Positions 8,800-62,082 of a stretch of 64,000 nucleotides of DNA are shown here, piece by piece (within the stretch, counting starts at the first letter, position 1; every line of letters starts with the position of its first letter). Source of the stretch: Acidiferrobacterales bacterium (lineage in GTDB: Bacteria > Pseudomonadota > Gammaproteobacteria > Acidiferrobacterales > SPGG2). Under the pieces are notes generated by a model that ran no database searches, was not told the origin of the DNA, and saw nothing but the letters and a program-made list of their open reading frames with translations. Made by a program: the position numbers and the translations under genes. The DNA lies in assembly GCA_046760105.1 (NCBI GenBank), contig JBHIDJ010000003.1, positions 19,718-83,717 of the forward strand, in the 5' to 3' direction.

Positions 8800-10833
<2,034 letters not shown>

Positions 10834-31331: not shown

Positions 31332-31898
31332 TTAGGCGTGCTGACCCAATCCGGCACTCGAGAACCCGCCCTCGTGCACGGGGCGCTGCGCCTCATCAAG
31401 GAACTCACACAACCTCGCCCTTACCGTATCTGCATCAATTGGCTTGGCCCAAAATTCCGTCGCGCCCTGCGATAAAGCGTGCTGCCGGATAGCACTATCG
31501 GGCACTCCCGTGATCATGATGATAGGAATGCGGTCGAAGCCGGAAAGTTTGCGGGCCGCAGTCAAGAAGTCGAGGCCATCCAGGTCCGGCATCATATAGT
31601 CGATCAGACACAGGTCGGGTACACGCCGGCAGCACCAGCACCACGCCAGCGCCGCACGGCTGGAAGTGAAGCTGACCATGTCAACGGCGTAATCGAGTCC
31701 CTTAATCAAGTTTTCAAGAATAGTGAGATTATCCCTTTCGTCATCCAACAGCAGGATCGTTGATTTCACGTACAGAATGTCTCTTATGCACCATGCCAAG
31801 GCATCTTCAAGTTCCATGCCAAGGAACGTGACTAACTCGCTTTCGAGGCGCAGTCGTCGCCACTTGCGGAGTTGCACGAGTTGGCCCCTTTCCGACAA
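31332..31898 (-). CDS. Stand-alone response-regulator receiver (REC) protein
   Basis: ILLLDDE, LIDYMMPDLDG (phospho-acceptor Asp), IIMITG and AKP motifs. The N-terminal ~45 aa are uncertain and the start could be internal (e.g. M28). An unusual CWCCRR cluster sits in the alpha2-beta3 region. Confidence 0.75.
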   Translation of the reverse strand: MSERGQLVQLRKWRRLRLESELVTFLGMELEDALAWCIRDILYVKSTILLLDDERDNLTILENLIKGLDYAVDMVSFTSSRAALAWCWCCRRVPDLCLIDYMMPDLDGLDFLTAARKLSGFDRIPIIMITGVPDSAIRQHALSQGATEFWAKPIDADTVRARLCEFLDEAQRPVHEGGFSSAGLGQHA

Positions 31899-32197
31899 CA
31901 GAAGAAATATTCTAAAGATCAGTAGCTTAGGAGAGGGAGTGCGTCTGCGCGCGGCCTGGGCGATGCCCTAGGTGCTGGCGGTGACGGCCCATCAGGGGGG
32001 CCAGCGAGACGTGCCGGAGGGCCCGAATGTCAGGAAAAGCGGCCCGTCATGCACTCAGATTGGGTCACTCCGGGTTCGGGGAGCGTCACCCCCGCCTTTG
32101 CCGGTCTCAGTTAGGCGCAGCCGACACACGCAGCCACCAGTGGGTTTGCGGCTGGGACGGGGTTGTAGCGCGGGGTGAGCAGAGAATTCTATAGGAC

Positions 32198-34096
32198 TTA
32201 ACGGCCAACGCGCTTGCGCGGTCGGGAATCAGGAGTGCTCTCGCTATCGTGGAGGTCCGTCTCGCCGATGAAATCCTCGAGCTCCTTGATGGTCGACTCA
32301 ATGGCACCTACCTCGGATTGCCCGGATTCCTGCGATTCCTGCTCGGGTTTGACAAGCCCCTCGGCGATCGTCAGTTCCTTCGTGTTCGTTTCCGCGGGCC
32401 CCGGGTTCACCACGGGCTTAGCTGGCGATTGTTCGGCGTTCGGGTTCAGTCGCGGACGCCAGGGTGAATCCTCTAGCCAACGCGAGAAATCTTGGGCACT
32501 CAAAGGCCGGCTTATGTATTCACCTTGCGCGGCTTCACAACCCTGTTTTTCCAGTTGCGCAAACGCCTGCTCGCTTGACGTGCCCTCACCGATGACCTCC
32601 AGGCCGAGGTTATGGGCGAGATCGATGGTGGCACGCACAATCTTGGCATGCTTGGCGTTTTGGATCATGTCCATGACAAAGGACTTGTCGATCTTTATCT
32701 CCTGCACCGGCAGTTTACTGAGATATGACAACGATGAGTAACCGGTGCCAAAATCATCGATCGAAAGCCGCACGCCCATGTCGGCCAGCCTTGTCAGGAT
32801 CTGTAACGCGCGATCTTGGTCTACCATGATGCTGGTCTCGGTGATTTCGAGGATCAGCCGCTCAGCGGGGACGCCTTGCGCGGCGAGCAACCCCGCGATG
32901 AGATCGGGGAGCTCAAGATCAAGCAGCCCCTGGGGTGACATGTTGAAGGCGACACCGATATCCAAGCCCGCCCGGGCCCAGCTGCACTGCTGCTGAAGGC
33001 CATGGTTGAGTACCCACATGGTCAACGGCTTTATCAGGCCGGTGCGTTCCGCCAAAGGAATAAAGTCATCGGGCGGCATGAGATCATGTTGGGGATGCTG
33101 CCAGCGCACCAACGCCTCGACTTCCGTAACTTGCTTGGTCTTTATGGTGACCTTCGGTTGATAGTGCAAGACCAGTTCGTCAGTCTCGATCGCGTGGCGT
33201 AGCTCTCCCATGAGCGTCAGTCGATGGGGGCTGTGTTTATCAAGCCGCGGATCGTAGACGACGTAACCGCTTTTTTCCTGCTTCGCCATATACATAGCGA
33301 CGTCCGCCCGCTGCAGCAGGGTGTCGGGATCCGGACCATGCTCAGGGAAGACCGCAATACCGATACTGGCCTGTACATCCAGCTTTAGCCCTTCCAGCGC
33401 AAACGGTGTTTGCAACGCCTTGCCGATGTTACGCGCTACCTGCATAGCCTCCTTAACTACCGATATTTTTGGCAACAAGATCGCAAACTCATCACCACCA
33501 AGCCGTGCAACGGTAAAAGTATCCTGGATTGTTCCTTGCAGGCGTGCCGCCACCTGCTTCAGCACGCGGTCACCACTGAAATGGCCAAGCGTGTCGTTGA
33601 TCTCCTTGAACCGATCCAAGTCCATGACGAGAATCGCCAGGTGGGTTTTGTCATGCTGGGCGGCGTTTAACGCCTGTTCCAGGCGGTCCAGCAATAGCAC
33701 ACGATTAGGCAGGTCAGTCAGGTGATCATGGGTGACATCGTGCATCGCCTGCTGCTCGATCGCCGTTGTCTGCGCCCGCAGCTCGCTCGTCTGGTCAACG
33801 ACCAGGGCACTGGCCTCAAAGGCCATAACCGACCCGATGTATTGGCCCCAGATCGCGAAGAAAAACGGCATGCCGTCCAATAGCCACAGTGCCCCGTTCG
33901 TCCTCTGAGCCTCGATGATCCCGGTGAGAGTGACGCCGCCTGTTTGGTAATAGCTCACGAGCGCAGTGGCAATGACGATCGCCGCGCACGCGATCGTCAC
34001 GCCATAAACGGCATACTTGTTCGCCTTGCCTTTGAGCAGCTGGACGTTGCTAGATAAACTTTGGCTCGCTGTCAGCGCCACTCGTAAATTCTCCAC
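32198..34096 (-). CDS. Membrane-anchored GGDEF-EAL protein (diguanylate cyclase / c-di-GMP phosphodiesterase)
   Basis: Two or three N-terminal TM helices, an intact RLGGDEF active-site motif, an EVEALVRW EAL motif and DDFGTGYSS. A ~110-aa acidic low-complexity C-terminal tail follows. Confidence 0.9.
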   Translation of the reverse strand: MENLRVALTASQSLSSNVQLLKGKANKYAVYGVTIACAAIVIATALVSYYQTGGVTLTGIIEAQRTNGALWLLDGMPFFFAIWGQYIGSVMAFEASALVVDQTSELRAQTTAIEQQAMHDVTHDHLTDLPNRVLLLDRLEQALNAAQHDKTHLAILVMDLDRFKEINDTLGHFSGDRVLKQVAARLQGTIQDTFTVARLGGDEFAILLPKISVVKEAMQVARNIGKALQTPFALEGLKLDVQASIGIAVFPEHGPDPDTLLQRADVAMYMAKQEKSGYVVYDPRLDKHSPHRLTLMGELRHAIETDELVLHYQPKVTIKTKQVTEVEALVRWQHPQHDLMPPDDFIPLAERTGLIKPLTMWVLNHGLQQQCSWARAGLDIGVAFNMSPQGLLDLELPDLIAGLLAAQGVPAERLILEITETSIMVDQDRALQILTRLADMGVRLSIDDFGTGYSSLSYLSKLPVQEIKIDKSFVMDMIQNAKHAKIVRATIDLAHNLGLEVIGEGTSSEQAFAQLEKQGCEAAQGEYISRPLSAQDFSRWLEDSPWRPRLNPNAEQSPAKPVVNPGPAETNTKELTIAEGLVKPEQESQESGQSEVGAIESTIKELEDFIGETDLHDSESTPDSRPRKRVGR

Positions 34097-40013: not shown

Positions 40014-40559
40014 ATGATATCAAGCAACTCCTGGTTACGAATATCGACCTTGTTGAGTCTCCTACTACCTATAGCGCAGGCAGGACCGCTGCACGATGCC
40101 GCAGAACGGGGAGACCTAGACCGGGCAAGAACGCTTATTGCCCAGGGTGCCAATGTCAACGCGCGGGACACAAATGCCGCCACACCGCTCCATTGGGCAG
40201 TCTACGGGGGTCACACGGCGCTCGCGCGATGGCTAATTGCGCAGGGCGCGGATGTCTACGCGAACGAAACACCGTTTTGCCCCACACCTCCGCAAGTTGC
40301 TGCGACCTTAAGTGACGATGCGTTAACGGCGTGGCTTGATCATCAGACCGCCCACATTAACGACAACACCCAAAACGGTGTCAGGCCGTTACACTGGGCT
40401 GCAGCCGGCGGCCACCTAGCCACGGTCGAGCTGCTGATTACTGAGGGCGCCAACATTAATGCAGAAACGGCCGAAGGCATCACCCCGTTGCAAACCGCCG
40501 CTGGTATGGGCCATGAGCACATCGTGAAGTTGCTACGACGGCATGGCGCCAAAGAATAA
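40014..40559 (+). CDS. Secreted ankyrin-repeat protein
   Basis: Signal peptide (LLSLLLPIAQA), then at least 4 ANK repeats (GANVNARDTNAATPLHWAVYGGH..., GANINAETAEGITPLQTAAGMGH...). Confidence 0.85.
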   Translation: MISSNSWLRISTLLSLLLPIAQAGPLHDAAERGDLDRARTLIAQGANVNARDTNAATPLHWAVYGGHTALARWLIAQGADVYANETPFCPTPPQVAATLSDDALTAWLDHQTAHINDNTQNGVRPLHWAAAGGHLATVELLITEGANINAETAEGITPLQTAAGMGHEHIVKLLRRHGAKE

Positions 40560-40650
40560 TATGTAGCACGAGTCAGGTAGGCTTGGTCTTGTCAACGGCG
40601 GCGCGCGACGCGGTCGCCGCTACGGCAACACATTTCTTGAGACTGCGCGA

Positions 40651-41034
40651 ATGCTCAATCGGTCTCTGCCGAAGGTAATCATTTTGATCTTTGCTCTTAC
40701 TATGGCAGCCTGCAAACAGGGCGAAAGTAAGACAGCGCCTACCAGTGGCGAACAGCTGGTGACCCCAGTGGCAAAAGGCTCGGTTACGCTCAGGTGGCAA
40801 CCACCCACTCGAAATACCGATGGATCAAAGCTGACCGACTTGGCTGGCTACAAGATTTACTACGGAACGTCCAAAGAATATTACCAACGGGTAATCGACA
40901 TAAAGGACCCAACCATAACGCAATACACGATCAACCACCTACCGCCATATACATACTACTTCGTGATAATAGCGTACAACCGCGCCGGCGCCGAGAGCCA
41001 CTACTCGAACGTCGGCAGCAAGACCATCCAGTAA
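40651..41034 (+). CDS. Small lipoprotein with a fibronectin-type-III-like domain
   Basis: Lipobox LTMAAC. Then VTLRWQPPTRNTDGSKLTDLAGYKIYYG...YYFVIIAYNRAGAES, a typical FN3 strand pattern. Confidence 0.6.
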   Translation: MLNRSLPKVIILIFALTMAACKQGESKTAPTSGEQLVTPVAKGSVTLRWQPPTRNTDGSKLTDLAGYKIYYGTSKEYYQRVIDIKDPTITQYTINHLPPYTYYFVIIAYNRAGAESHYSNVGSKTIQ

Positions 41035-41139
41035 CGCCAAGCCATTCGCTCAGTAACTCCAACACCAAGCGACGAGGCGCTTGGCGTTCTTGGCCTGCTT
41101 TTTGCTTGGCTCTAACTCGATCAGTTCACGCCAACGTAG

Positions 41140-42135
41140 ATGGGCATCGACAAGAGCATCTGGCTTCCGGTAGCGGCGTTATTCAGTCCTGGCTTATCGC
41201 CCCGCACTTCGCGCGATAGCACGTGGGAGACGTTGATGGACGCCGGTACCATAGCCTACGAGCAAGGTCGCTACGCAAAAGCCGAGGAGCAGCTATGGGC
41301 CGCGCTCAAACGCGCCGAGACCTTTGGGCTTGCGGATCTGCGCGTCGTCACTAGCCTCAACAGCCTTGCCGAAGTCCATCGCGCGCAAGCTAAGTATACC
41401 GACGCGGAATCGCTCATTAAGCAAGCCTTGGCACTCCGCGAGAACACGTTCGGACCTGTCCATGCTGACGTGGCGGCTAGCCTCAACAACCTAGCGGAGC
41501 TCTTCCGAGCTCAGAGCAAACACGACGAGGCCAAATCGCTTCTCAAGCGTGCCGTATCCATTTATCAGAAGATCGTGGACACGGAACACCCTGATGTTGC
41601 CACAACCCTCAACACTCTGGCGCTCTGCTACCGTGATCAAGGCGAGCATGCTAAAGCAAAGTCATTGCTGAAAGACGCCTTAGCGATTCGGAAGAAGTCG
41701 CTGGGATCAAGACATCCGCGCGTCGCCACTACGCTCAACAATCTCGCGCTTTGTTACCGTGCCGAGGGTAACGACGCCAAAGCCGAGCCGCTGCTGAAGC
41801 AGGCTTTGAAGATCCGCGAGAAGACTCTCGGACCGCGGCATCCGCGCGTGGCCACCAGTCTCAACAATCTGGCGCAGCTCTATCGAACCCTGGGTCGACA
41901 CGGTGAGGCCGAGCGCCTATACAAGCGCGCCTTGAAGATTCTGGAGAAAGCAAAAGGAAGAAACCACGCAAAGGTGGCCAACGTCTTGGATAACTACGCC
42001 CACCTTTTGACAGACATGAAAAAACCGAAGCAGGCGGCAAAGCTTGTTGCTCGCGCAAAAATCGTTAGAAAAAAAATGGTGGATAGCGGTCCGTCAGTTG
42101 TTGGCCGTGGGCGCTACGTCCTCGGAAGTTTCTGA
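41140..42135 (+). CDS. Tetratricopeptide repeat protein (kinesin-light-chain-like TPR_10/12 repeats)
   Basis: Six or seven 42-aa repeats of the form HPxVATxLNNLAxLYRxQGxxxxAExLxKxAL. The start is uncertain (41140 or an internal Met). Confidence 0.85.
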   Translation: MGIDKSIWLPVAALFSPGLSPRTSRDSTWETLMDAGTIAYEQGRYAKAEEQLWAALKRAETFGLADLRVVTSLNSLAEVHRAQAKYTDAESLIKQALALRENTFGPVHADVAASLNNLAELFRAQSKHDEAKSLLKRAVSIYQKIVDTEHPDVATTLNTLALCYRDQGEHAKAKSLLKDALAIRKKSLGSRHPRVATTLNNLALCYRAEGNDAKAEPLLKQALKIREKTLGPRHPRVATSLNNLAQLYRTLGRHGEAERLYKRALKILEKAKGRNHAKVANVLDNYAHLLTDMKKPKQAAKLVARAKIVRKKMVDSGPSVVGRGRYVLGSF

Positions 42136-42823: not shown

Positions 42824-43042
42824 TTATACCTCCCACCGGTCACCACAATGATTTACGTAGTAGCCCTCCCCGGGATGCAGCAAAGGCGTACCAACGTGGA
42901 TCGTCGCGTCACGCGTGACGCTCGCCCACACTTCATCGGGGTTAAAGCCATGGTTAAAGCGGCGACGTTTCGCGACTTCCCGGGCGATCATCGCAGCCGC
43001 AAATTGGCACGCACGTGCAAGTCTTGGATTAATATGGTCCAT
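42824..43042 (-). CDS. Small basic hypothetical protein (72 aa)
   Basis: ORF preceded by AAGGAGGT ~7 nt upstream of the ATG. First gene of the three-gene operon. No family recognised. Confidence 0.55.
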   Translation of the reverse strand: MDHINPRLARACQFAAAMIAREVAKRRRFNHGFNPDEVWASVTRDATIHVGTPLLHPGEGYYVNHCGDRWEV

Positions 43043-43368
43043 AGCTCTACCTCCTTGCCCTCACACATGCGCCCCGCAAATCTCACTGCCCGCTTGTCCG
43101 CCTACCGACCTTGTTAAAAGCAATTGCTATACGGATCTGCTAGCTGCGCCGCTTGTCCTGGGGCGCTGTAGTGCAGTTGGGTCCAACAGTACAGAGATAG
43201 AGCAGCGTGATCTGTTAAGTAATACGTCGAGCGTTCGTGAAATATTTACGGTAGGGGTCCGATCAAGAAGCCAACTTTTTATCAAGCCTTTAGCAACCGC
43301 GTCTTACGTGTGTCAGCTCGTTTGTTGGATGTCCTGAGCTTTCGGCCGACCCCCACCGCGAAGAAGGC

Positions 43369-43385
43369 TTGTTAATTTTTCACAG
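43369..43385. promoter_or_regulatory. CRP-like operator candidate (TGTTA-N5-TCACA)
   Basis: TTGTTAATTTTTCACAG lies in the divergent intergenic region, 157 nt upstream of the Sel1 gene ATG. It is one mismatch from the palindrome TTGTGAA-TTT-TTCACAA seen at 57099. Confidence 0.4.
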
Positions 43386-43541
43386 CTTTTTAACAGCATA
43401 TTTCACAGAAGCTACACGCGTCTTTGGACTAATGTATTGAGCATATACAAAGGCGGTCTTGGCATACCTTCGAGGAGCTAACTGGTCGTCGAGAACAAGG
43501 TAAACCGGGTAGTTCCGTGCCTGACCGCAAGCGAGGACACT

Positions 43542-44324
43542 ATGTGCAGATTGCAGAGAAGAACAGCATCAACCATAGCGGAAGGTGAGGTGAAGGGTGA
43601 AGAATCAGGGAGAACTCTGCTGTTCAGCGGTCTCCTCCTGGGCACGCTCTATTTTTTTACTCCGTGCATAAGCCAGGCCACAGTCACGTACCATCATCAG
43701 GTGGCGGACAAGGCGCTACCTTCGCTACACGAAACAGGCCTCCTCGCGTATCGCTACAGTGAAGCCGACAAGGCAATAGAGCGCGGAAATTATGAGCAGG
43801 CTATCCATATCCTCCAGTTGCTAGCGAAACAGGGAGCCATGAAGTCCCAGTATGATCTAGGGGTCATGTATTACCATGGGCTTGGCGTTAAGCAAGACAA
43901 GGCCGAGGCCATGCGATGGAACCGTATGGCGGCCGAACAGGGGCACATAGCCGCGCAATACAACATGGGCATCGCCTATTCAACGGGGACAGGCGTCGAC
44001 CTAGACGCCGTTAAAGCTGCCGACTGGTGGCGCAAAGCCGCCCTTCAAGGCAGCACCGAGGCACAGTTTAATCTCGGTCTGATGTACGCCCAGGGTGACG
44101 GCGTGACCCAGAATATGATGCAGGCAGCCCGATGGTGGTACGAGGCAGCGACGCATGGCGATGCCGCTGCGCAGTATGCCCTCGGTCTCATGTTTGCCAG
44201 GGGCGATGGCGTTACCCAGAACCTCAACGAAGCGGCGAAGTGGTGGTATCTGGCAGCAAGCCAGGGATTTGAACGCGCCAAGAATGCCTTGAACAAGCTT
44301 CGCCTTATCGTGATACCGAAATAA
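43542..44324 (+). CDS. Sel1-like repeat (SLR) protein, probably secreted
   Basis: About five Sel1 repeats (AQYNMGIAYSTGTGV..D..KAADWWRKAA..G). A hydrophobic signal-like segment LLFSGLLLGTLYFFTPCISQA suggests the start may be downstream of 43542. The last 49 nt lie inside direct-repeat copy A. Confidence 0.85.
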   Translation: MCRLQRRTASTIAEGEVKGEESGRTLLFSGLLLGTLYFFTPCISQATVTYHHQVADKALPSLHETGLLAYRYSEADKAIERGNYEQAIHILQLLAKQGAMKSQYDLGVMYYHGLGVKQDKAEAMRWNRMAAEQGHIAAQYNMGIAYSTGTGVDLDAVKAADWWRKAALQGSTEAQFNLGLMYAQGDGVTQNMMQAARWWYEAATHGDAAAQYALGLMFARGDGVTQNLNEAAKWWYLAASQGFERAKNALNKLRLIVIPK

Positions 44325-44361
44325 AAGGCGCGCAGACGCTATCGCAGTCCTCACCGATGAC
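44276..44361 (+). repeat. 86-bp direct repeat, copy A (covers the Sel1 gene 3' end, stop and 37 nt downstream)
   Basis: CGCCAAGAATGCCTTGAACAAGCTTCGCCTTATCGTGATACCGAAATAAAAGGCGCGCAGACGCTATCGCAGTCCTCACCGATGAC. It matches 46542..46627 at 83 of 86 positions by hand alignment. Confidence 0.85.
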
Positions 44362-44608
44362 ACGGAATCAGGGATTCCCTAATATAGAGGGTCACGGAAT
44401 CCTTGATTGACGCGGAGCCCGAAATCGGCGTTGATTTCATAGGACCAACGACTAGCAACAATAATAGCAATAGCGCGTTTTCCAGCGCCAAACGTCTCCG
44501 GGGAAGGGATCCCCAGCATGCACAGCCACAACGGCTCCGACAAGAAGCTACGGGGCTTTGGTCCGCCTCTGACGCAAATAGACGCATCCACCTGAGGGAG
44601 GGTCCAAC

Positions 44609-46315
44609 ATGAAAAACCTCCAAATAGTGCTGAACCTCACGCGCAACCACAATCGTTTCGCCAGCCAGAGCGTTGATCTGATCGCGTCAAACTCGTGGAT
44701 TAGCCAGTTCGCACGGCTCGCCATGACCTCCTCGCTGCCGAACAGCTACTGCATCGGTCTGCCGGGTAACCGCCTCTACGGCGGATGCACCTACATCGAC
44801 ATGATCGAACGGGAGATTTGTCGACTCGCCCGCGAACTGTTCCCGATGGAGCACGTGGTGTTGCAGTTCCTCTCAGGCATGCAGGCCAACATCGGTGCCT
44901 ACAACGCCGTACTCAAACGGGGTAATACTGTAATGGCTGCCCAGTTGAAGCACGGGGGCCACTACAGTCACAACCCGCAAGGCCCATTGCGCCTTTTTTC
45001 GGCAAAACTCGTGCCGGTGCCCTTCGACGACTCCTGTTACAACATCGACGTCGATGAGCTCGCCAAGTCGCTCGCAACGCAGAAGCCAAAGCTTCTTATC
45101 GTGGGCTGGAGCGAGTTTCTGTTCCCCCATCCGCTCCCTGAGATCCGCGCGCTGTGCGACAAGCACGGCGTTCGCTTGATGTACGACATGTCGCACGTTG
45201 CCGGGCTGATCGCTGGGAAAGTCTTCCAGCCCGATGCGACCAAGTATGCCGACATCGCCACCAGCTCAACCGGCAAGTCGCTGCACGCGCCCGACCACGG
45301 CATGGTCTTTTTCAACGACAAGTCGCTAGAGACGGGTGTCCTTGACGCCGTGATGCCCCTGCTTACTTCCAATACGCACCCACACGAGATGGCGGCACTC
45401 GGCGTTGCCTTTGCCGAGATGGTAGAGTTCGGCCGAGACTACGCCTTACAGGTCGTGCGCAACTCCAAGGCCCTGGGCCGTGCGCTCGAAGAGGAGGGGC
45501 TCAAAGTCCTTTATGCGCATCTAGACTATAGCGAGAGCCATACCGTGCTCGTGGAATACGTCGCCTCGAGCGTTGCCGTGGCCCTGCTGGACCGGACCGG
45601 TATTCTGTGCAACACGTGCCCACTTCCATGGGATCCCCCACGTACCGAGACGGGTCTGCGGCTCGGGACTCAGGTCCTAACACGGCGCGGGATGCGCGAG
45701 CCCGAAATGCAGGTGATCGCCCAAGGGATCGCACGGGTACTTCTGCATGGCGAACACCCGGATCGCGTGGCCTACGAGTTTGTCAAGCCACTCGCCCAGC
45801 GATTCGATCGAACGGTGTACTCGTTTGACTTTCACTTCCCGCTGCAGCAGGACTGGTATGGCGCCCCGTACGAAGGCTACCGCGCGGAAAATGTCGACGA
45901 TGTAATCCACGAGCTCGTACCGTTCGCAAACTGCACACCCGAGCAGATCCGATCACTCGCCGAACAGCTTACTCTCGTCGTTATCGACAAGGAACAAGTG
46001 TTATTCGAGACGGGCGATGCCTCGGATAGCGTGTACTTCATCAGTGAGGGAATCGTGGAGATCATGGACCGGTCCGGTAACACGGATGTTGTGATCGGGT
46101 CTCTCGGAGAAGGCAAGCACTTCGGGGAGCTTGGTGTGATGAAAGGCATCAACCGTACCATGACTGCACGAGCACAGCCTCGCACGCGTCTGTTCCGCAT
46201 GAAGGCCGCAAACTTCGAAGAGCTGCTCAAAGACGTCCTACCGCTCAGACAGTACTTCGAGGATTACGTCCACATCATCGAAGAACAAAACCGCTGGCGA
46301 CAGCGCGCCATGTAA
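44609..46315 (+). CDS. SHMT-fold PLP-dependent enzyme fused to a C-terminal cyclic-nucleotide-binding (CAP_ED) domain
   Basis: aa 1-~430 carry GlyA-like motifs: LIASNSW, LYGGC, SGMQAN, HGGHYSH, DMSHVAGLIAG, SSTGKSL (Lys223). aa ~434-545 form a cNMP domain with the cassette FGELGV...RTMTARA. A GAGGGAGGG Shine-Dalgarno precedes the ATG. Confidence 0.85.
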   Translation: MKNLQIVLNLTRNHNRFASQSVDLIASNSWISQFARLAMTSSLPNSYCIGLPGNRLYGGCTYIDMIEREICRLARELFPMEHVVLQFLSGMQANIGAYNAVLKRGNTVMAAQLKHGGHYSHNPQGPLRLFSAKLVPVPFDDSCYNIDVDELAKSLATQKPKLLIVGWSEFLFPHPLPEIRALCDKHGVRLMYDMSHVAGLIAGKVFQPDATKYADIATSSTGKSLHAPDHGMVFFNDKSLETGVLDAVMPLLTSNTHPHEMAALGVAFAEMVEFGRDYALQVVRNSKALGRALEEEGLKVLYAHLDYSESHTVLVEYVASSVAVALLDRTGILCNTCPLPWDPPRTETGLRLGTQVLTRRGMREPEMQVIAQGIARVLLHGEHPDRVAYEFVKPLAQRFDRTVYSFDFHFPLQQDWYGAPYEGYRAENVDDVIHELVPFANCTPEQIRSLAEQLTLVVIDKEQVLFETGDASDSVYFISEGIVEIMDRSGNTDVVIGSLGEGKHFGELGVMKGINRTMTARAQPRTRLFRMKAANFEELLKDVLPLRQYFEDYVHIIEEQNRWRQRAM

Positions 46316-46541
46316 CGCCAGTAATCAACTGACCAGGCGGCAAATTTTTTGGCGCCAGCTGCCGGCCGTCCCGACCCCGCATCCAGATACGCTAGGCACC
46401 GAAGCTTGGCCCTGCCGGTTTCGATTGACCCTCTTGATCACTCTCTCGCGAGCCTCGACGCTCTATCTTCCCCTTGACCTAGGTGCGCGGCAGTTGCCGA
46501 TACCGAAAGTGCGGGCCCAGAGATTCCACGGTTTCTTTGGC

Positions 46542-46627
46542 CGCCAAGAATGCATTGAACAAGCTTCGCCTTATCGTGATACCGAAATAAAAGGCGCGTA
46601 AACGCTATCGCAGTCCTCACCGATGAC
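46542..46627 (+). repeat. 86-bp direct repeat, copy B (orphan copy of the Sel1 gene 3' end)
   Basis: Same sequence as 44276..44361 with 3 substitutions, 2266 bp downstream. The sequence upstream of copy B is not Sel1-like in the matching frame. Confidence 0.85.
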
Positions 46628-46719
46628 GACCGGCTGGGCGCCACCGCAAGCTGTGGCCAGCGCCCCAGGCGATAATTCAATACCACCTCAATGCTAAAGA
46701 TGCGGCGGTGACGACAGAG

Positions 46720-47454
46720 CTACCAGCCTGCTGGCAGCTTTTTCTTGATAGTAATCCTCTTGTCTTCGACTCTTATATATCCACCCGTCGCAAGATCTTT
46801 CAAGATGCGGCTTACCATCTCCCTTGATGCCCCCACCATGTTAGCAATATCCTGCTGAGTTAACTTTTCGGAGATTACGAAATTGCCGTTTTCCGCTGTA
46901 GCGAGGTTTGATAATGTTCTCGCAACCCGTCCGTAGACGTCCCTTAGGGCGAGGCCTTTCACGTTATCAGTCAGCATCCGTATTCGATGCGTTAACTCCT
47001 TGATGAGGGTAATCGCAATATCGGGATTCTTGGCCAGACACTCCTTGAAATCGCTCTTCGAGATGATCGAAAACCTTGAGGGCTCCAACGTCATAACAGA
47101 TGCGGACCTGGGGGCGTCATCAAGTAACGCTATTTCGCCAAAGTACTCTCCTGGCCCTTCTATATCGAGGATGATTTCTCTTCCTTGCTCGTCACTCAGA
47201 AACACTTTCACTTTGCCCGTCAGAATAACGTAGAGCGAGTCAGTAGTATCCCCCTCATTGATGACGATGGTATTTCTTGGGAATGTCTTCGTGACTGCGT
47301 GGCCGGATACCGTCGCGAGATCCGCTTGTGCCAGGCTCGCAAAAAGCGGGATGCCCTCGAAGACGCCCCCCGTCTGCGCGGCGGTGAGACCCGTATACCG
47401 GACTGAATTGTAGCCCACCGTCGCTTGCGCTGCGCTCAGATTGCTGGTAGTCAC
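46720..47454 (-). CDS. Crp/Fnr-family transcriptional regulator with a cNMP-binding domain
   Basis: 244 aa. The cNMP cassette is FGEIALLDDAPRSASVMT (RS as in the E. coli CRP cAMP site). The HTH is TQQDIANMVGASREMVSRILKDL, retaining the CRP R-E-x-x-x-R DNA-contact pattern (CRP: SRETVGR). Confidence 0.9.
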   Translation of the reverse strand: MTTSNLSAAQATVGYNSVRYTGLTAAQTGGVFEGIPLFASLAQADLATVSGHAVTKTFPRNTIVINEGDTTDSLYVILTGKVKVFLSDEQGREIILDIEGPGEYFGEIALLDDAPRSASVMTLEPSRFSIISKSDFKECLAKNPDIAITLIKELTHRIRMLTDNVKGLALRDVYGRVARTLSNLATAENGNFVISEKLTQQDIANMVGASREMVSRILKDLATGGYIRVEDKRITIKKKLPAGW

Positions 47455-47550
47455 CGTTCTACCCTCCTTGCGTTCTCACGAACGCGCTAATACTGCGGCT
47501 GCGCTGAAACTACACCAATTATTACTATACATAGATTTAGGAACTGCTCG

Positions 47551-47566
47551 TGTGTAAGATTTCACA
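47551..47566. promoter_or_regulatory. CRP-consensus-like site (TGTGT-N6-TCACA)
   Basis: TGTGTAAGATTTCACA starts 97 nt upstream of the crp-like gene start, adjacent to the N5 palindrome at 47573. Confidence 0.35.
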
Positions 47567-47572
47567 GGGATT

Positions 47573-47589
47573 CTGTGAAAAATTCACGG
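47573..47589. promoter_or_regulatory. CRP-like operator candidate (TGTGA-N5-TCACG)
   Basis: CTGTGAAAAATTCACGG lies 119 nt upstream of the crp-like gene (possible autoregulation). It also forms the inverted repeat TTTCACAG-GGATT-CTGTGAAA with the preceding half-site. Confidence 0.45.
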
Positions 47590-47629
47590 TTTACGGTACC
47601 CACCAGCAACGAGATGGGAAGATTTGTAG

Positions 47630-47673
47630 TGCGAACGAGCTGGTCGGGAGTTCGAGTCTCTCCGGGCGTGCCA
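47630..47673 (+). other. tRNA 3'-half fragment with encoded CCA (tRNA-Arg-like architecture); no 5' half present
   Basis: TGGTC GGGAG TTCGAGT CTCTC CGGGCGT G CCA reads as variable loop, canonical T-arm (G53, T54 T55 C56, A58, C61), 7-nt acceptor strand, discriminator and CCA. No complementary ACGCCCG-type 5' acceptor strand occurs in the preceding ~100 nt, and the anticodon stem cannot pair. Confidence 0.55.
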
Positions 47674-47974
47674 ATAATCAAAGAGTTACACTCACCCTCG
47701 CGGTAGCAGGTCGTGGCGAATCACCAATGAGTCACCACAGGGGCGGCTGTTCAACCGCGTCGGAGAGGCAGACCGAGCAAACATGTAGTCGAGCTGTGAT
47801 CAAGGCTTTTAAATTTTCACAATCTCCCCTCCGTATTGGTACGCCTTCGCCCGGCGCAAGCGGGAATTACGATACGGAAGATCGCAACACCCGTCGCAGT
47901 GCACTCCTTGGGTTAGTCGGCCCGCAAGTAACTCACGCCCCTGCTGAGTGCCGGCATGCCCCGAAGTCGTCAGG

Positions 47975-48838
47975 TCACACAGTTCCAACCGTGAGCACTT
48001 CGAGCATGCTGAAGTAGAGCTCGTCTCGGTCGAGGATATACTCATCAGAGGCGGGGTCAAAATGCGCTCTCCACTGCGCATAGTCTTCCACTGATAGATA
48101 TGGCTCTGCCATTCTCGCGTGCCATTCACTATTGCCGGCGATGTATCGCTTGGCCGCAGGCGTCAACGGCGCGAGCTTCTGAATGGCATAACTCTTCGTC
48201 CACACGTCCTTGAGCCCCGCTTTTAGAAACGACCCATGCGTTTTTCTCCCAGCGAAATTGTCAAAGTACTTTTCTGATCGATCACGAGCGCGCGAGGCCC
48301 CCAGAAGGACCTTCAGGGTCAGGGTAGGATCGATGGGATGTAATATAAAGTCGGCGCCGTCGAAATCCTTGGCCGCAATCCTCCCGCCTTTTCTTGTCAC
48401 GCGCTTCTGCTCCTCCAGAATCCTGAGATGATCCTCGACATAAGTGAAGCAACCTCCGAAAAACACGAAGTCGACCCTGTCATCGTCGAGCGGTATCGCT
48501 GAGAAATCGGCTTGGCGAAAGCTCATCAGGTCCTTCAGTGGGTTATGCTGGCGTTGCTTTTCGGCGTACGCCAACAGCTCCACAGAGATATCAACGCCGA
48601 TGATCCGCCCATCCGGCTTGACCTTCTCTGCAAACAGGGGACTCCATAAACCTGGTCCACATCCCAGGTCCAACACCACATCCCCGGGGGTGAGATAGAG
48701 GTCATCGACCAGTTGCCGTCGCTCGTGTTGCTTTGTTTCATGATGATCCAGGAGCCACCGGAGCTCGGTCAGCTCCAGGCCATCCGGACCGGTGTTGAAT
48801 GCGACATCGACGGACATGGGACCCCCTTGTTGTGACAT
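47975..48838 (-). CDS. Class I SAM-dependent methyltransferase
   Basis: 287 aa with SAM motif I VLDLGCGPGLW and a downstream acidic loop IGVDIS; Methyltransf_11/25-like. Confidence 0.85.
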   Translation of the reverse strand: MSQQGGPMSVDVAFNTGPDGLELTELRWLLDHHETKQHERRQLVDDLYLTPGDVVLDLGCGPGLWSPLFAEKVKPDGRIIGVDISVELLAYAEKQRQHNPLKDLMSFRQADFSAIPLDDDRVDFVFFGGCFTYVEDHLRILEEQKRVTRKGGRIAAKDFDGADFILHPIDPTLTLKVLLGASRARDRSEKYFDNFAGRKTHGSFLKAGLKDVWTKSYAIQKLAPLTPAAKRYIAGNSEWHARMAEPYLSVEDYAQWRAHFDPASDEYILDRDELYFSMLEVLTVGTV

Positions 48839-49241
48839 TGGGAACCGTATTTCCCATTGTTCACGGCGCCATACGGCGCCAGTTTATCCTGAAGCCGGCC
48901 GCAATAGTTGCCAGGGGGCGGCCACATCCCGACTCAGGACGCGCTGAGCGGTAGGCCTGTCGGCGGGCCTCAGAGCTGTTTTGAAATTCTGAGTGACCCC
49001 TGTGCCGAACATAGAGACAACAACGAGGCTATTGTCAAATTATACGCCGAAAGACCGTCCCAGCCCGAATTGACATTTCACCAAATTAGTCGAATCCTTT
49101 GTTCTTTACGGCGAGGTAAGAGGTAATATACGGTGCCGTACTCAGAACGCACTATAAAGACATAAACGAGCTACTCTCAACGAGTCCCGTGCCGTTCAAA
49201 TCAGAGGGCACCGCCCCGCGACCTCTGGCGAGGAGACAACT

Positions 49242-51029: not shown

Positions 51030-53291
51030 ATGTTGCGATTGCTTTCGATCCGAGACCGACTCTTCCTTCTGCTGATGCTGCTCGTCGCGTCGCTCGTCTT
51101 CACCAACCTCCTGCTGATCAACCAGACGAGAAACCTCGAGCACTCCATCCGTCAACAGGCGCACAACATCGATCGCATGGTGAAAGTCGATGCAGCGGTC
51201 AAGACCTTCGGCGACCTTAAGTACTGGCTGACTGCCTGGGCACTTAACGTCGACGCCCATGCCGAGAAGCGTGCCAAGGACGCCCGCGACCTCCTAAACG
51301 GACAGCTATCCGAGCTCAAACCGGATCTGCCGGAGGTGGTCGCCGATGTGCCTGGGCAGGCGGCCGATCTGGTGAGCGAGACAAGCGCGGCCGCGGAAGC
51401 GTTCGCGCGTGATAACTATGCCGTTGCCAAGGGCCTGATCCGCAGGGGGCATGGGCATGTTTTGGCGGTTGATGCCAAGCTTTCAACGGTGGTGGGTAGC
51501 CTCCAAGAAAAAGCTCAGAGTGCTGCCGCGAGAGCGTTGCGGGAGACTTCGCAGGATGTTCAAACCGCCTTATGGATCGTCGTGCTGGTGAGCCTCGTGG
51601 CCGCCACCTTGACCTTTCTAATCGTGCGCTCGGTGGTCATGCCGCTGCGACAAGTGGGCGGGGTGATAGGCGCTATGAGCGCTGGCGAGATGGACGTCCC
51701 TCTGCCGCCAGCGAGCCGTGATGAGATCGGGGATATGGTGCAGGTGCTCACCCTGTTCCGGGAGAACGTCGCACGACGCAGGGCAATCGAACAGGACTTG
51801 CGCGAGGTGCTCGATGCCATCGAATACGGCATCCTGTTCATGGATTCGAATTTGCAGATTCGCATCGATAACCGCGCCTACCGCGAAATCTGGGGTATCC
51901 CCGAGAGCTTTCTCGCCCAGAAGCCCCACCTGCGGGAGTTAATGGAGTACAACCGCGAACACGAGATCTACGATGTCCCCGAGGGTGGGTGGGAGAACTA
52001 CGTCGAAGGCCGTATCGACTCCATTCAAAAGGGGAGTATTCCCCCGACGGAGCTGCACCGCGCCGACGGCAAGATAATCCAGTATCAGTGCGTCGCCCTT
52101 CCAGACGGCGGTCGGATGCTCACGTATTTCGACATTACCGAGATCAAGCGCGCCGAGCAGGCGCTGCGCGAGAGCGAGGAGCGTTACGCCCTGGCGATGA
52201 TGGGCGCCAATGAAGGGCTGTGGGACTGGGACTCGCGCGCCAATGAGATTTACGTCTCCCCGCGCTTCAAGACGATCTTCGGGATGGAGACGGAGGCCCT
52301 CAAAATCACGCCAGCCGACTGGGAGGCCTGCATCCATCCGGATGACCGTGCCCACTACCGCCAGGCATTTCAGGCGCACTTGCGCGGTGACACCGAGTTC
52401 TACCAATCCGAATGCCGCGTGCTGTTGCCCGATGGAGCCCAGCGCTGGGTCCGGATGCGCGGCATCGGCCTGCGCGATGAACGCGGCCGGGTATATCGCA
52501 TGGCCGGATCCGTCGGCGATATCACTGCGGGCAAGCAAGCTGAAATCGAGCTACGCCAAGCCAAGGATGAGGCCATGCAAGCGAGCAACGCCAAAACCCA
52601 GTTCCTCGCCAACATGAGCCATGAGCTGCGCACACCTCTGAACGCCATCTTGGGTTATACGGAGCTGATCCTGGACCAGGTATACGGCGAGGTGCCCGAC
52701 CAGACCCGGGATGTTCTCGAGCGCGTGGAGCAGAGCGGCCGCCACCTACTTGGGCTCATCAACGACGTTCTCGACCTCTCCAAGATCGAGGCAGGTCGCT
52801 TCACGCTGCCCCTCGCCGACTATTCCATGCAGGAGGTGGTCGGGAACGTCATTAGCACAGTCGAATCATTGGGGGCGGAAAAAAATCTGGCCCTGAACGT
52901 TTCGCTTCCACCTGATCTGCCTATCGGAAGGGGGAACGAACAACGCATCACCCAGGTCCTGCTGAATCTCATCGGGAACGCAATCAAGTTTACTGACGTC
53001 GGGGAGGTTTCAGTAGAGGTAACGGTATCCGACGAAAACTTTGTCGTTTCCGTGTCCGACACCGGGATCGGCATATCGGAAGCGGATCAAGCGGAGATTT
53101 TCAAAGAATTTCAGCAGGCGGACAATTCCGTCACACGCGAACGTGGGGGCACAGGCCTCGGTCTCGCCATCGCCAGGCGCATGATCGAAATACAGGGGGG
53201 GCGCGTGTGGGTTCAGTCGACCCGGGGCAAGGGTTCGACCTTTTCGTTCTCACTGCCCATCCGGGTCGAGCCACAGCCGGAGGCGACATGA
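51030..53291 (+). CDS. Sensor histidine kinase (2 TM + periplasmic helical domain, HAMP, 2x PAS, HisKA, HATPase_c)
   Basis: H-box FLANMSHELRTPLNAILGYTE, N-box LLNLIGNAIKFT, G-boxes DTGIGI and GGTGLGLAI. Two PAS-like blocks occupy aa ~270-520. Confidence 0.9.
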   Translation: MLRLLSIRDRLFLLLMLLVASLVFTNLLLINQTRNLEHSIRQQAHNIDRMVKVDAAVKTFGDLKYWLTAWALNVDAHAEKRAKDARDLLNGQLSELKPDLPEVVADVPGQAADLVSETSAAAEAFARDNYAVAKGLIRRGHGHVLAVDAKLSTVVGSLQEKAQSAAARALRETSQDVQTALWIVVLVSLVAATLTFLIVRSVVMPLRQVGGVIGAMSAGEMDVPLPPASRDEIGDMVQVLTLFRENVARRRAIEQDLREVLDAIEYGILFMDSNLQIRIDNRAYREIWGIPESFLAQKPHLRELMEYNREHEIYDVPEGGWENYVEGRIDSIQKGSIPPTELHRADGKIIQYQCVALPDGGRMLTYFDITEIKRAEQALRESEERYALAMMGANEGLWDWDSRANEIYVSPRFKTIFGMETEALKITPADWEACIHPDDRAHYRQAFQAHLRGDTEFYQSECRVLLPDGAQRWVRMRGIGLRDERGRVYRMAGSVGDITAGKQAEIELRQAKDEAMQASNAKTQFLANMSHELRTPLNAILGYTELILDQVYGEVPDQTRDVLERVEQSGRHLLGLINDVLDLSKIEAGRFTLPLADYSMQEVVGNVISTVESLGAEKNLALNVSLPPDLPIGRGNEQRITQVLLNLIGNAIKFTDVGEVSVEVTVSDENFVVSVSDTGIGISEADQAEIFKEFQQADNSVTRERGGTGLGLAIARRMIEIQGGRVWVQSTRGKGSTFSFSLPIRVEPQPEAT

Positions 53292-53672: not shown

Positions 53673-54842
53673 GTGAGAACGCCACCGCAGATCCTCATCG
53701 TGGACGACAACCCGACGAACGTGGATATCCTTCAGGCACGCCTCACCGTGCACGGCTATGACATTCTCACGGCGAGCGACGGCGAGCAAGCTGTAAGCAT
53801 CGCCAGAGAAAGGCAGCCAGATCTCATTTTGTTGGATGTCATGATGCCAAAAATGGATGGCATCGAGGTCTGTCGACACCTCAAAGGCGATCCCTCGCTG
53901 CCGTTTATGCCGATTATCCTGGTCACAGCTAAGTCGGATTCGAAGGACGTGGTCGCCGGTCTGGAGGCGGGTGCCGAGGAGTATCTGACCAAGCCCGTAG
54001 ACCAACAGGCGCTCGTGGCAAGGGTCAAGTCGATGTTGAAGATTAAGGACCTCCACGATACGACCCAAGAGCAGGCGGCCCAGCTCTCGCAGTGGAACCG
54101 GACGCTCGAGGAGCGCGTCAAGGAGCAACTCGCAGAGCTGGAGCGCATGAGCCAGCTGAAGCGATTCTTCTCTCCGCATCTCGCGAAGCTCATCGTGTCC
54201 TCCGGAGACAAGAGCTTCCTCAAAAGCCACCGACAGGATATCACCGTGCTCTTCTGTGACCTCCGCGGGTACACGACATTCGCGACGAGCGCCGAGCCCG
54301 AAGAGGAAATCCAGCTGCTGGACGAGTACCACAAGGTCGTCGGTTCCTTGGTATTCGGCTTCGAGGCAACCCTGGAGCACTACGCCGGGGATGGGATCAT
54401 GGCGTTCTTCAACGACCCGATACCCTGTCCTTCTCCGGCGGTGCGCGCCATCCGGATGGCATTGGCGATGCAACGGGAGGTCGGCGAGTTGCTCGAGGGG
54501 TGGCGGAAACGCGGCTTCGACTTGGGGTTCGGCGTGGGGATTGCCATGGGGTACGCCACGTTGGGACAGATCGGTTTCGAAGGCCAATTTCACTACGCCG
54601 CCGTCGGCTCTGTGTCTAACCTTGCGGCGCGCCTTTGCGACAAGGCCCAAAGCGGGCAGATCCTGATCTCCCAGCGGGTCTACGCGGAACTCGAGGGGCT
54701 GGCAGAGGCTGAACCGGTCGGAGAGCTCGCTCTCAAGGGATTCGAGAAGCCCTTACCCGCCTATAACGTGCTCGCAATAAAGGCCGATGAATCTCCTCAC
54801 GAGGAAACTCAGTCTCCGGGGTCGAGCGACGGGAGGCGGTGA
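53673..54842 (+). CDS. Response regulator with a class III adenylate/guanylate cyclase output domain
   Basis: REC (ILIVDDNPTN, ILLDVMMPKMDG, VTAKS, LTKP), a coiled-coil linker, then CYCc (ITVLFCDLRGYTTFA..., GDGIMAFFNDP, GIAMGYATLGQIGF..., NLAARL). Confidence 0.88.
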   Translation: MRTPPQILIVDDNPTNVDILQARLTVHGYDILTASDGEQAVSIARERQPDLILLDVMMPKMDGIEVCRHLKGDPSLPFMPIILVTAKSDSKDVVAGLEAGAEEYLTKPVDQQALVARVKSMLKIKDLHDTTQEQAAQLSQWNRTLEERVKEQLAELERMSQLKRFFSPHLAKLIVSSGDKSFLKSHRQDITVLFCDLRGYTTFATSAEPEEEIQLLDEYHKVVGSLVFGFEATLEHYAGDGIMAFFNDPIPCPSPAVRAIRMALAMQREVGELLEGWRKRGFDLGFGVGIAMGYATLGQIGFEGQFHYAAVGSVSNLAARLCDKAQSGQILISQRVYAELEGLAEAEPVGELALKGFEKPLPAYNVLAIKADESPHEETQSPGSSDGRR

Positions 54843-57204: not shown

Positions 57205-57512
57205 TTTCTGATGGCAACGCTACATAGAGCGAGCAACCAGGAGTCTAGTAAGGTGACAAGCATCCAAACATTTAGCGGGTTATCCGGGCGAGGGCTCGCG
57301 CTGCAGACGCGAGGCTTATCCGCTGCGGCACCCACAGTGACTATGAACAGAAGGAATGACGAGACGATACAAGAGTACGAACGCCCGATACCTGGGGTAA
57401 CTGGTAGGGACGTTTTTTGTGCATGGATTGTAGTCGCTACATTTCTGCTCGGGTTGCTTGTGTTGTCCGTGGTTTAACGAGAACCCGAAAAATAGCAAGA
57501 GAGAATTCGCGA

Positions 57513-57938
57513 ATGCGGTTGACCAAACTCATAGCCTCGCTATTTGTCAGAGGTGGGCAAACGCTCCACATGCGAACTTATAAGGAAGGATTGGCCGCCT
57601 ATAAGTCTGGGCACTATAGCGCGGCAGTAGCTAGTCTAAGGCCGTATGCTAAGAAGGGCGATGCACTGGCGCAGCTGACGCTTGGCAACATGTACAAGAA
57701 AGGTCTTGGGGTGCCGAAGGACCTCGATCAAGCGGCGCATTGGTACCGCAAAGCGGCGACTCAGGGGGATCCTGACGCGAAGTTTAATCTGGGAATCATG
57801 TACATCAGGGGGGACGGTGTAACCGGCGACAAAGGTCAAGCGTTAAACTGGCTGAAGGACGCGGCAGAACAGGGCCACAGACAAGCCAGGCTCGCTTATG
57901 AATACATCACGAGGCAAGAGTACCAGAACGTCTGTTGA
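57513..57938 (+). CDS. Sel1-like repeat protein (short)
   Basis: About three Sel1 repeats (AQLTLGNMYKKGLGVPKDLDQAAHWYRKAATQGDPDAKFNLGIMYIRGDGV...). I prefer the ATG at 57513 over the longer track ORF from 57417. Confidence 0.8.
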   Translation: MRLTKLIASLFVRGGQTLHMRTYKEGLAAYKSGHYSAAVASLRPYAKKGDALAQLTLGNMYKKGLGVPKDLDQAAHWYRKAATQGDPDAKFNLGIMYIRGDGVTGDKGQALNWLKDAAEQGHRQARLAYEYITRQEYQNVC

Positions 57939-61211: not shown

Positions 61212-62078
61212 CGGGCGGTCTAGAAAGAGTGGCAGCAATGCGCTACCAGCACTACAAATCGCTCAGGTGGTTCCGCATTACTGTCGGGCTTGGTTTCGTG
61301 GGCAACATGATCTTCGTGCTACCCGCCCTCTTCGCTCCCCGGTACCTGGAGACACTGATTGAGGTCGGGACGACCAACACACTCCACTGGCTGCAGAACG
61401 TCGGGATCCTGCTGCTGATCATCACGATCATGTACATCCCGGCGATCAAGGATCCTTTCCGCTACCTCTTCATCTCGTACCTGCTCGTGGCAGGTCGATT
61501 TTCTGCTGGACTACTCTTCTTGCTGGGAGTTCTGTTCATGAACTACCCCTCAGGTATGTTGGTCCTTTCGGGCAGCGATCTCATCCTATCAAGCATCCAA
61601 GCTGTCCTTCTCTACTTCATGCTCCGGGACGGGGATCCCCGGGCGGTCTAGAAAGAGTGGCAGCAATGCGCTACCAGCACTACAAATCGCTCAGGTGGTT
61701 CCGCATTACTGTCGGGCTTGGTTTCGTGGGCAACATGATCTTCGTGCTACCCGCCCTCTTCGCTCCCCGGTACCTGGAGACACTGATTGAGGTCGGGACG
61801 ACCAACACACTCCACTGGCTGCAGAACGTCGGGATCCTGCTGCTGATCATCACGATCATGTACATCCCGGCGATCAAGGATCCTTTCCGCTACCTCTTCA
61901 TCTCGTACCTGCTCGTGGCAGGTCGATTTTCTGCTGGACTACTCTTCTTGCTGGGAGTTCTGTTCATGAACTACCCCTCAGGTATGTTGGTCCTTTCGGG
62001 CAGCGATCTCATCCTATCAAGCATCCAAGCTGTCCTTCTCTACTTCATGCTCCGGGACGGGGATCCCCGGGCGGTCTA
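61212..62078 (+). repeat. Perfect tandem duplication: 2 x 428 bp plus an 11-bp third-copy stub
   Basis: Unit 61212..61639 equals 61640..62067, judged from identical sense and antisense ORF translations at a 428-nt offset. All three junctions share CGGGCGGTCTA (61212, 61640, 62068). Confidence 0.9.
61229..61651 (+). CDS. Small 4-TM membrane protein, copy 1
   Basis: ~137-140 aa with four hydrophobic helices (ITVGLGFVGNMIFVLPALFA, VGILLLIITIMYIPAI, LFISYLLVAGRFSAGLLFLLGVLF, LVLSGSDLILSSIQAVLLYFML). The start is the GTG at 61229 or the ATG at 61238. No family recognised. Confidence 0.65.
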   Translation: MAAMRYQHYKSLRWFRITVGLGFVGNMIFVLPALFAPRYLETLIEVGTTNTLHWLQNVGILLLIITIMYIPAIKDPFRYLFISYLLVAGRFSAGLLFLLGVLFMNYPSGMLVLSGSDLILSSIQAVLLYFMLRDGDPRAV

Positions 62079-62082
62079 CTGA
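61657..62082 (+). CDS. Small 4-TM membrane protein, copy 2 (identical except for one extra C-terminal Tyr)
   Basis: Same sequence as copy 1. It ends ...DPRAVY* because the duplication junction changes the stop context. Confidence 0.65.
   Translation: MAAMRYQHYKSLRWFRITVGLGFVGNMIFVLPALFAPRYLETLIEVGTTNTLHWLQNVGILLLIITIMYIPAIKDPFRYLFISYLLVAGRFSAGLLFLLGVLFMNYPSGMLVLSGSDLILSSIQAVLLYFMLRDGDPRAVY

Follow-up and report, generated by a model that had tools for sequence, protein, structure and literature searches.

In Escherichia coli K-12, the 15.2-kb prophage e14 is flanked by the 3' end of icd and the icdC pseudogene, which together form a direct repeat of ~165 nucleotides (nt) with ~92% identity (PMC13626634). 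Like phage 21, e14 occupies the 3' end of icd, supplies a substitute end that keeps the gene intact, and leaves the displaced native end orphaned on its far side. The same layout is described here for a 64,000-nt stretch of DNA from an uncultured Acidiferrobacterales bacterium (GenBank assembly GCA_046760105.1, contig JBHIDJ010000003.1, positions 19,718 to 83,717 of the forward strand; hereafter the window, numbered from its own first letter), in which a segment of 2.2 kb with one gene, predicted to encode an SHMT-like enzyme fused to a cyclic-nucleotide-binding domain (SHMT-cNMP), stands between two direct, non-identical copies of the end of a Sel1-repeat gene. The repeats measure 86 nt and are 96.5% identical, and, whereas e14 carries its own intE and xisE, this insert brings a single metabolic or signalling gene, with no recombinase gene in the entire 64 kb. 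Because it has no integrase and consists of only 2.2 kb with one gene, it is not classed as an e14-type element.

Other described systems share some of these features. Cis-mobilizable elements (CIMEs) are decayed integrative and conjugative, or integrative and mobilizable, elements in which attL and attR persist although the genes for integration and transfer are gone (PMC5704250). The insert fits this form in having repeats and no integrase, but there is no evidence that the repeats serve as attachment (att) sites of any recombinase; moreover, CIMEs are recognised through a cognate element at the same att site, whereas here no decayed integrase fragment was found in the insert, and no such element in collections that lack the host species. 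Described CIMEs are also larger than this insert. In integration of the Campbell type, as practised with suicide plasmids, one crossover in a short shared segment duplicates that segment, as seen here, and host RecA suffices. Homology-facilitated illegitimate recombination during natural transformation, which pairs homology on one side with an illegitimate joint on the other, has been recorded in several bacteria (PMC3240628). Both of these are laboratory or induced events, while a natural donor circle bearing a Sel1 gene end would be hypothetical. Finally, insertion sequences and other transposons, with their target-site duplications, and integron cassettes likewise place direct repeats around an inserted gene, and single-gene cargo is shared with the integron cassette.

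A repeat search of the window recovered the very pair on which the original prediction was built: two copies of 86 nt, identical at 83 positions, that start 2266 nt apart and enclose 2180 nt of unique sequence. The copies differ at repeat positions 13 (C in copy A, A in copy B), 58 (C/T) and 60 (G/A), the first of these being synonymous in the Sel1 frame (GCC/GCA, Ala), and the longest stretch that they share without interruption is 44 bp; the 26-nt non-coding part of the 86-mer reads ACGCTATCGCAGTCCTCACCGATGAC. Both boundaries of the repeat are sharp. Aligned to each other with blastn, the copies give E = 5e-38, the next best matches in the window being 13-mers, and a 57-nt core of the repeat, searched with at most three mismatches, occurs only in copies A and B within the 64 kb and never in 100 dinucleotide shuffles. 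A 10-mer, GATACCGAAA, at 46499, 43 nt 5' of copy B, was considered as a third, degenerate copy and dismissed as a chance-level match (E = 8.5); a tandem duplication was rejected as well, the copies being 2180 nt apart and amounting to only 1.04 'units'. A degenerate 33-mer covering 10 codons (NKLRLIVIPK) and the stop had no match in genome, metagenome and viral collections, which is weak negative evidence because the host species itself is absent from them. The features of the locus are the following.

44276 to 44361, plus strand: repeat copy A, comprising the last 15 Sel1 codons and 1 nt, the stop codon and 37 nt of 3' flank.
46542 to 46627, plus strand: repeat copy B, an orphan Sel1 gene end.
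43590 to 44324, plus strand: Sel1-repeat gene, the intact target (Pfam Sel1, E = 2.5e-41, four repeats).
44362 to 44608, plus strand: non-coding DNA at the left of the insert, 247 nt, with no family match for the overlapping small open reading frames (ORFs).
44609 to 46315, plus strand: cargo SHMT-cNMP gene, 568 amino acids (aa), with Pfam SHMT and cNMP_binding domains.
46316 to 46541, plus strand: non-coding DNA at the right of the insert, 226 nt, with no Pfam match and not recognisable as a gene relic.
46631 to 46671, no strand assigned: GC-rich hairpin (RNA fold) in the native Sel1/Crp intergenic region.
46720 to 47454, minus strand: Crp/Fnr-family regulator convergent with Sel1 (cNMP_binding, E = 5e-26; HTH_Crp_2, E = 5e-16), the right synteny anchor.
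42824 to 43042, minus strand: small ORF of 72 aa 5' of Sel1, without Pfam or PHROG match, the left synteny anchor.

Which of the two copies serves the gene? The Sel1 ORF opens at the ATG at 43542, but its start codon is probably the GTG at 43590, behind which a signal-peptide-like N-terminus would follow. Copy A provides its end, namely a single nt from an Arg codon, the 15 complete codons that follow (AKNALNKLRLIVIPK), the stop codon (44322-44324) and the 37-nt flank; the 16 codons counted originally were thus right to within one, and the stop and the flank stood as described. Over its full length, including the C-terminus that copy A encodes, the Sel1 protein can be aligned with homologues of 52-57% identity, among which this C-terminus is kept (for example ...NALNKLRLLVVPE and ...ALYKLRLIVVPQ). 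Since the C-termini of the homologues resemble that of copy A, copy A is a functional gene end of native type. Copy B, by contrast, is an orphan, as had been proposed together with the unrelated character of the sequence upstream of it: stop codons interrupt the Sel1 frame 5' of copy B, and a search for a relic of the Sel1 body there gave a local score of 24 against 18.8 +/- 2.3 in shuffles, 9 of 200 of which reached 24, which is not significant. The candidate relic of a second Sel1 gene at this place was accordingly left unsupported by the test of residual similarity. Because it adjoins native intergenic sequence, copy B is read as the displaced native end of Sel1.

Is the duplication a property of the chromosome or of its assembly? 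A contig from a second metagenome-assembled genome (MAG; contig L001, GCA_046759405.1) matches the window from 43055 to 49213 at 99.3% identity and holds the two copies, each with its own three distinguishing bases and its junctions as in the window, so that in both MAG assemblies the phase is C,C,G on the Sel1 side and A,T,A on the Crp side. Two Logan contigs from other runs (L002 and L003) cover 44332-46584 at 100% identity, and in them the left insert end is continuous with the A-type bases at 58 and 60, the right insert end with the B-type base at 13; they stop inside the copies because the k=31 graph branches at the exactly shared 44 nt. Beyond the two MAG assemblies, both junctions between insert and repeat occur in contigs of three runs. 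It may be objected that all of these data are metagenomic and that Logan contigs, which break in the repeat, do not phase position 13 with positions 58 and 60, leaving room for the possibility that the assembly used the shared 86-mer to thread a small, separate circle, or a strain variant, into the chromosome. Such a threaded circle would, however, need the opposite phase of position 13 relative to 58 and 60, which neither full assembly has, and an artefact would have to have arisen with identical phase and junctions in two MAG assemblies and to be matched by the junctions of three further runs. An assembly artefact is therefore highly improbable, and the phase in L001 together with the Logan junction contigs rules against one repeat copy being false.

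The closest available relative, the Gammaproteobacteria MAG 21_Jan_SF_Bin47 (L015, the same as L099), was the only syntenic one that searches of genomes and metagenomes with the Crp protein yielded. In it, homologues of the small ORF (68% aa identity), of Sel1 (55%) and of Crp (76-78%) are contiguous; the first of these, at L015 positions 17938-18153, matches over 72 aa (tblastn) and lies next to the Sel1 gene, which converges with Crp across a 117-nt spacer with nothing between, and no SHMT-cNMP gene is present within 20.7 kb of sequence. Rebuilding the window site with a single repeat copy gives a spacer of 129 nt and an alignment with L015 at both coding ends. The empty site for which the original prediction had called has thus been found in one relative, as far as gene order goes. 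None of the other loci among the 160 compared has the synteny of small ORF, Sel1 and Crp: Sel1 homologues other than the gene itself reach 52-62% identity at best, and the contexts examined differ (FA_hydroxylase - Sel1 - PgpA/rib operon), while a further contig (L100), with 80% identity in Crp, carries this gene twice in tandem and lacks Sel1. For an empty-site allele in the same population, look-ups with the exact Sel1, Crp and methyltransferase proteins returned only L001 and short Logan contigs that end before the repeat. As an aside, Crp is paralogous in both relatives, at 10001-10738 and 15939-16637 in L015 (~5 kb apart) and, in tandem, at 889-1554 and 1999-2640 in L100; the window has just one Crp gene, with which each paralogue shares 76-80% identity, and one of those in L015 abuts Sel1.

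The cargo gene has its own relatives elsewhere. Homologues with the same two-domain architecture are 79% identical at best and then 62% or less, and the three contexts examined, of homologues at 79% and ~60% identity, are unrelated (CoA-transferase / SpoIIE response regulator; STAS-PAS / AMP-ligase; sulfatase / methyltransferase). In none of the three do direct repeats surround the homologue or does it adjoin Sel1 or Crp, and similarity to the window ends at the limits of the coding sequence. Because Sel1 and Crp are uninterrupted in L015, and because the cargo homologues occur elsewhere in unrelated contexts without repeats, comparative gene order identifies 44362-46541 as a lineage-specific insertion into an Acidiferrobacterales chromosome, at the junction where Sel1 and Crp converge. 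The initial view of the locus as an insertion or recombination scar thereby gains support from a repeat that is real and a relative that is uninterrupted. The repeat copies differ by 3.5%, whereas the Sel1 proteins of the window and of L015 have diverged by ~45%, and the duplication is thus much younger than the split of the two lineages.

The second MAG contig is informative also about recombination at this place. It differs from the window at 42 positions, all left of 44187, with none from 44187 to 49213; 36 of them fall within ~400 nt 5' of Sel1 (43110-43510, ~9%) and six within 69 nt inside Sel1 (44118-44186), five of these six being synonymous. The pattern is a mosaic of short recombination tracts derived from a diverged lineage, the last of which ends ~90 nt before copy A.

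What could have moved the segment? Pfam scans were run on the 46 ORFs of at least 150 aa that were taken as genes (overlapping alternatives excluded), on some smaller ones and on the small ORFs inside the insert, and no integrase, transposase or other recombinase was found in insert or window, in agreement with what had been read from the bare sequence. Nor are there convincing terminal inverted repeats at the ends of the insert, where nothing goes beyond a weak 7/9 match, as had equally been noted. Target-site duplications of transposons span 2-15 bp. The earlier argument that 86 bp is far too long for one holds against this range, and a transposon or insertion sequence was rejected on all three grounds: no transposase, no inverted repeats beyond 7/9 and a duplication of 86 nt. 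The 86-mer shows no attC-like fold on either strand relative to shuffles (z = -0.14, +1.03 and -0.24) and no intI gene occurs among the scanned ORFs, which disposes of an integron gene cassette. There is no tRNA gene and no Rfam family near the locus, the 2.5-kb region has no match among plasmids and phages, and no viral contig encoding a relative of the cargo was found. Judged as an integrative element, the insert has bounding direct repeats, overlap with a gene end and an empty site (by gene order in one relative), but no encoded recombinase.

The inserted segment is 2.18 kb long and consists of one gene with its own 5' and 3' non-coding DNA. By its domain content, the cargo product is an SHMT-like enzyme of the pyridoxal-phosphate-dependent type (Pfam SHMT, E = 2e-64, residues 8-372) fused to a C-terminal cyclic-nucleotide-binding domain (cNMP_binding, E = 7e-18, residues 458-541), and the protein is recorded in an Acidiferrobacterales MAG under accessions MFQ6021401.1 and MFQ5936117.1. 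As first stated, this is the only gene between the repeats, no other ORF there having any family match. The composition of the insert is native-like (GC content 58%, rising to 73.5% at third codon positions; codon-usage distance 0.78 within a window range of 0.59-1.38); the comparison with the flanks that had been suggested was thus made and revealed no difference, a result that is uninformative rather than contrary. The left non-coding part would presumably hold the promoter or operator of the cargo gene, although a promoter-like match at 44357-44385 is at chance level, as are the terminator-like matches. Five nucleotides inside the left insert end begins an inverted repeat (I21), 44366-44378 (AATCAGGGATTCC) and 44396-44408 (GGAATCCTTGATT), with a 13-bp stem, a 17-nt spacer and 92% complementarity, whose RNA fold (-19.1 kcal/mol, z = -2.45) was equalled in stability by 3 of 200 shuffles; it is more likely regulatory than recombinational. 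The motif CACGGAATC stands in two direct copies at the same end (44361 and 44393) and, as a weak inverted copy matching at 7/9 positions (GATTCCACG, 46521-46529), close to the right end; it is not enriched elsewhere in the window. The right non-coding part has no significant similarity to the Sel1 body or to the flanks.

Among the explanations for this arrangement, we favour, with a probability of roughly one half, a single reciprocal crossover of Campbell type inside the repeat, in which the chromosome recombined with incoming DNA bearing its own, slightly different Sel1 end. The donor would have been incoming, probably circular DNA already holding a variant copy of the gene end; one crossover inside the 86 bp would have placed a copy at each side of the insert, keeping the Sel1 frame through copy A and leaving copy B orphaned beside the native hairpin and Crp. 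Because no recombinase accompanies the insert, the catalyst would be either the host homologous recombination machinery (RecA, which would have had the 44 bp of unbroken identity to work on) or a site-specific integrase acting in trans or since deleted. The uninterrupted ancestor, the repeat on the incoming DNA, the circular intermediate and the acting enzyme are all four elements that we infer. This reading is in keeping with the layout of an intact and an orphaned gene end, as known from elements that insert by way of a gene end held in common with the target, and with the non-identity of the copies, which fits a donor of a related lineage. Moreover, the patches of ~9% divergence just left of the repeat in L001 imply that exchange with diverged relatives occurs at this locus, so that a difference of 3.5% between the copies of donor and recipient would be unremarkable. 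Several considerations weigh against this crossover. The evidence for an empty site comes from one moderately distant relative and concerns gene order, not nucleotide identity; neither insert nor window encodes a recombinase; and the native-like composition offers no independent mark of foreign origin. The donor, a circular form and a second 86-mer copy were not found in genome, metagenome and viral collections, a weak negative in that the host species is absent from them. Incoming DNA must, furthermore, already have held a Sel1 end, which moves the origin of that junction one step back, and the three mismatches could equally be substitutions that followed a duplication in situ.

The main rival, about half as probable, is that the target was duplicated in place, either when a linear fragment was captured at a break staggered by 86 nt and followed by fill-in and end-joining, or through a template switch that resumed 86 nt back; both copies would then be native, identical at first, and the three differences would have come later. 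Such a course needs neither a recombinase nor a prior Sel1 end on the incoming DNA, and it fits the absence of mobility genes, the sharp repeat boundaries, the one-off character of an event without further copies and a composition that would suit an intragenomic source. It also finds a parallel in a perfect 428-nt tandem duplication with 11-nt microhomology elsewhere in the window, which indicates that duplication-generating errors occur in this genome or its assembly. Yet the junctions GATGAC/ACGG and TTTGGC/CGCC show no evident microhomology, and chance would have to account for a duplicated stretch that exactly preserves Sel1, unless selection against truncated Sel1 explains it. We know of no bacterial enzyme or repair route that makes regular 86-nt target duplications around kilobase inserts, and we found no directly applicable literature on illegitimate-recombination duplications. 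If copy B were instead the remnant of a larger duplication, with all or a large part of Sel1 once on both sides of the cargo and a deletion having left the last 86 nt downstream, this would accord with the common origin of orphan gene ends in the erosion of duplicated genes, with a left edge of copy B that could be a deletion endpoint, and with the presence of a second, more distant Sel1 gene in the window (57417-57938). This is unlikely: no residual Sel1 similarity exists 5' of copy B, two events and an unexplained placement of the cargo between duplicates are required, and the right repeat boundary would still lack an explanation. A little less likely again is that the order Sel1 - SHMT-cNMP - Crp with its repeats is ancestral and that L015 lost the segment; deletion between direct repeats is easy and would yield the arrangement of L015, and only a single relative is available, but an orphan non-coding copy could not have stayed 96.5% identical while the Sel1 proteins fell to ~55% identity, and the cargo homologues known elsewhere never lie beside Sel1 or Crp. 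Finally, the 86 bp could be the site of an unlinked, trans-acting recombinase that moves integrase-less single-gene cassettes into gene 3' ends while preserving the target. If true, this would be a trans-acting cassette system distinct from integrons, having no attC fold and no adjacent integrase, with the SHMT-cNMP gene, whose setting differs in every genome examined, as one of its cargoes, but we regard it as very unlikely, and nothing at this locus gives evidence of a cassette system that is active or recurrent. In appearance the element is a fixed scar rather than an active mobile element. The original caution about the mechanism of mobilisation holds for both of the routes then offered, an att-like site and duplication-mediated capture.

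The surroundings are those of an ordinary chromosome, with ubiE, hemB, adk, an H+-PPase, gatAB, mreBC-PBP2-rodA, a TRAP transporter and signalling genes. Left of Sel1 lie a DUF6647 protein and genes with ankyrin (40014-40559), fn3 (40651-41034) and TPR_12 (41140-42135) domains, so that 40014-42135 forms a cluster of eukaryote-like repeat proteins; the second, shorter Sel1-repeat gene mentioned above has a homologue also in L015. To the right of copy B follow the hairpin, the Crp-family regulator, a methyltransferase, a solute-binding protein, a PAS histidine kinase and a response regulator/nucleotide cyclase. The hairpin (-23.2 kcal/mol, z = -1.5 on the plus strand) has no U-tract and was missed by a terminator scan; it is possibly a terminator common to the two convergent genes. 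The cargo gene stands beside the Crp-family regulator and ~7 kb from the PAS histidine kinase and the response regulator with its adenylate/guanylate cyclase domain, and the genes at 44609-46315, 46720-47454, 51030-53291 and 53673-54842 make up a cyclic-nucleotide signalling neighbourhood, to which the cargo may be functionally linked. A GGDEF-EAL protein and a response regulator are encoded at 31332-34096. A perfect 19-bp palindrome, TTCACAG-GGATT-CTGTGAA (47561-47579), lies ~107 nt 5' of the start of the Crp ORF and is a candidate operator; it has the 9-mer CAGGGATTC in common with the inverted repeat at the left insert end (44366-44378).

Two further repeats of the window deserve mention. 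The tandem duplication of 428 nt at 61212-62078 amounts to 2.03 copies of 100% identity, with the 11-nt microhomology CGGGCGGTCTA at its bounds. Its neighbours are a FAD_binding_4 gene on one side and a gene for a RoxA-like cytochrome c on the other, and it doubles an ORF of ~137 aa (61239-61650 and 61667-62081) whose product, judged from the sequence, is probably a membrane protein; the duplication is either very recent or an artefact of the assembly. On the minus strand, the adenylate kinase ORF (6071-7027) carries at its 3' end a run of degenerate CTT/GCC-rich repeats (6092-6313), which encode a Lys/Ala-rich C-terminal tail of ~100 aa, the ADK domain ending near residue 190 of 318.

An islet bounded by direct repeats at the 3' end of a gene is of a known general kind, and the present one is unusual only in its very small size and in having no linked recombinase; the locus alone reveals no new mechanism. 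Its practical value is limited to dating and orienting the acquisition of the fusion gene and to offering a precise pair of junctions for read data. What it records is the entry of a single accessory gene into a core chromosomal region of an uncultured member of the Acidiferrobacterales, a relative of sulfur bacteria, with the target gene undamaged and no mobility gene linked to it. Small islets make up much of the variation in bacterial gene content, and while their routes of entry are seldom visible, the scar left by this one is still legible.

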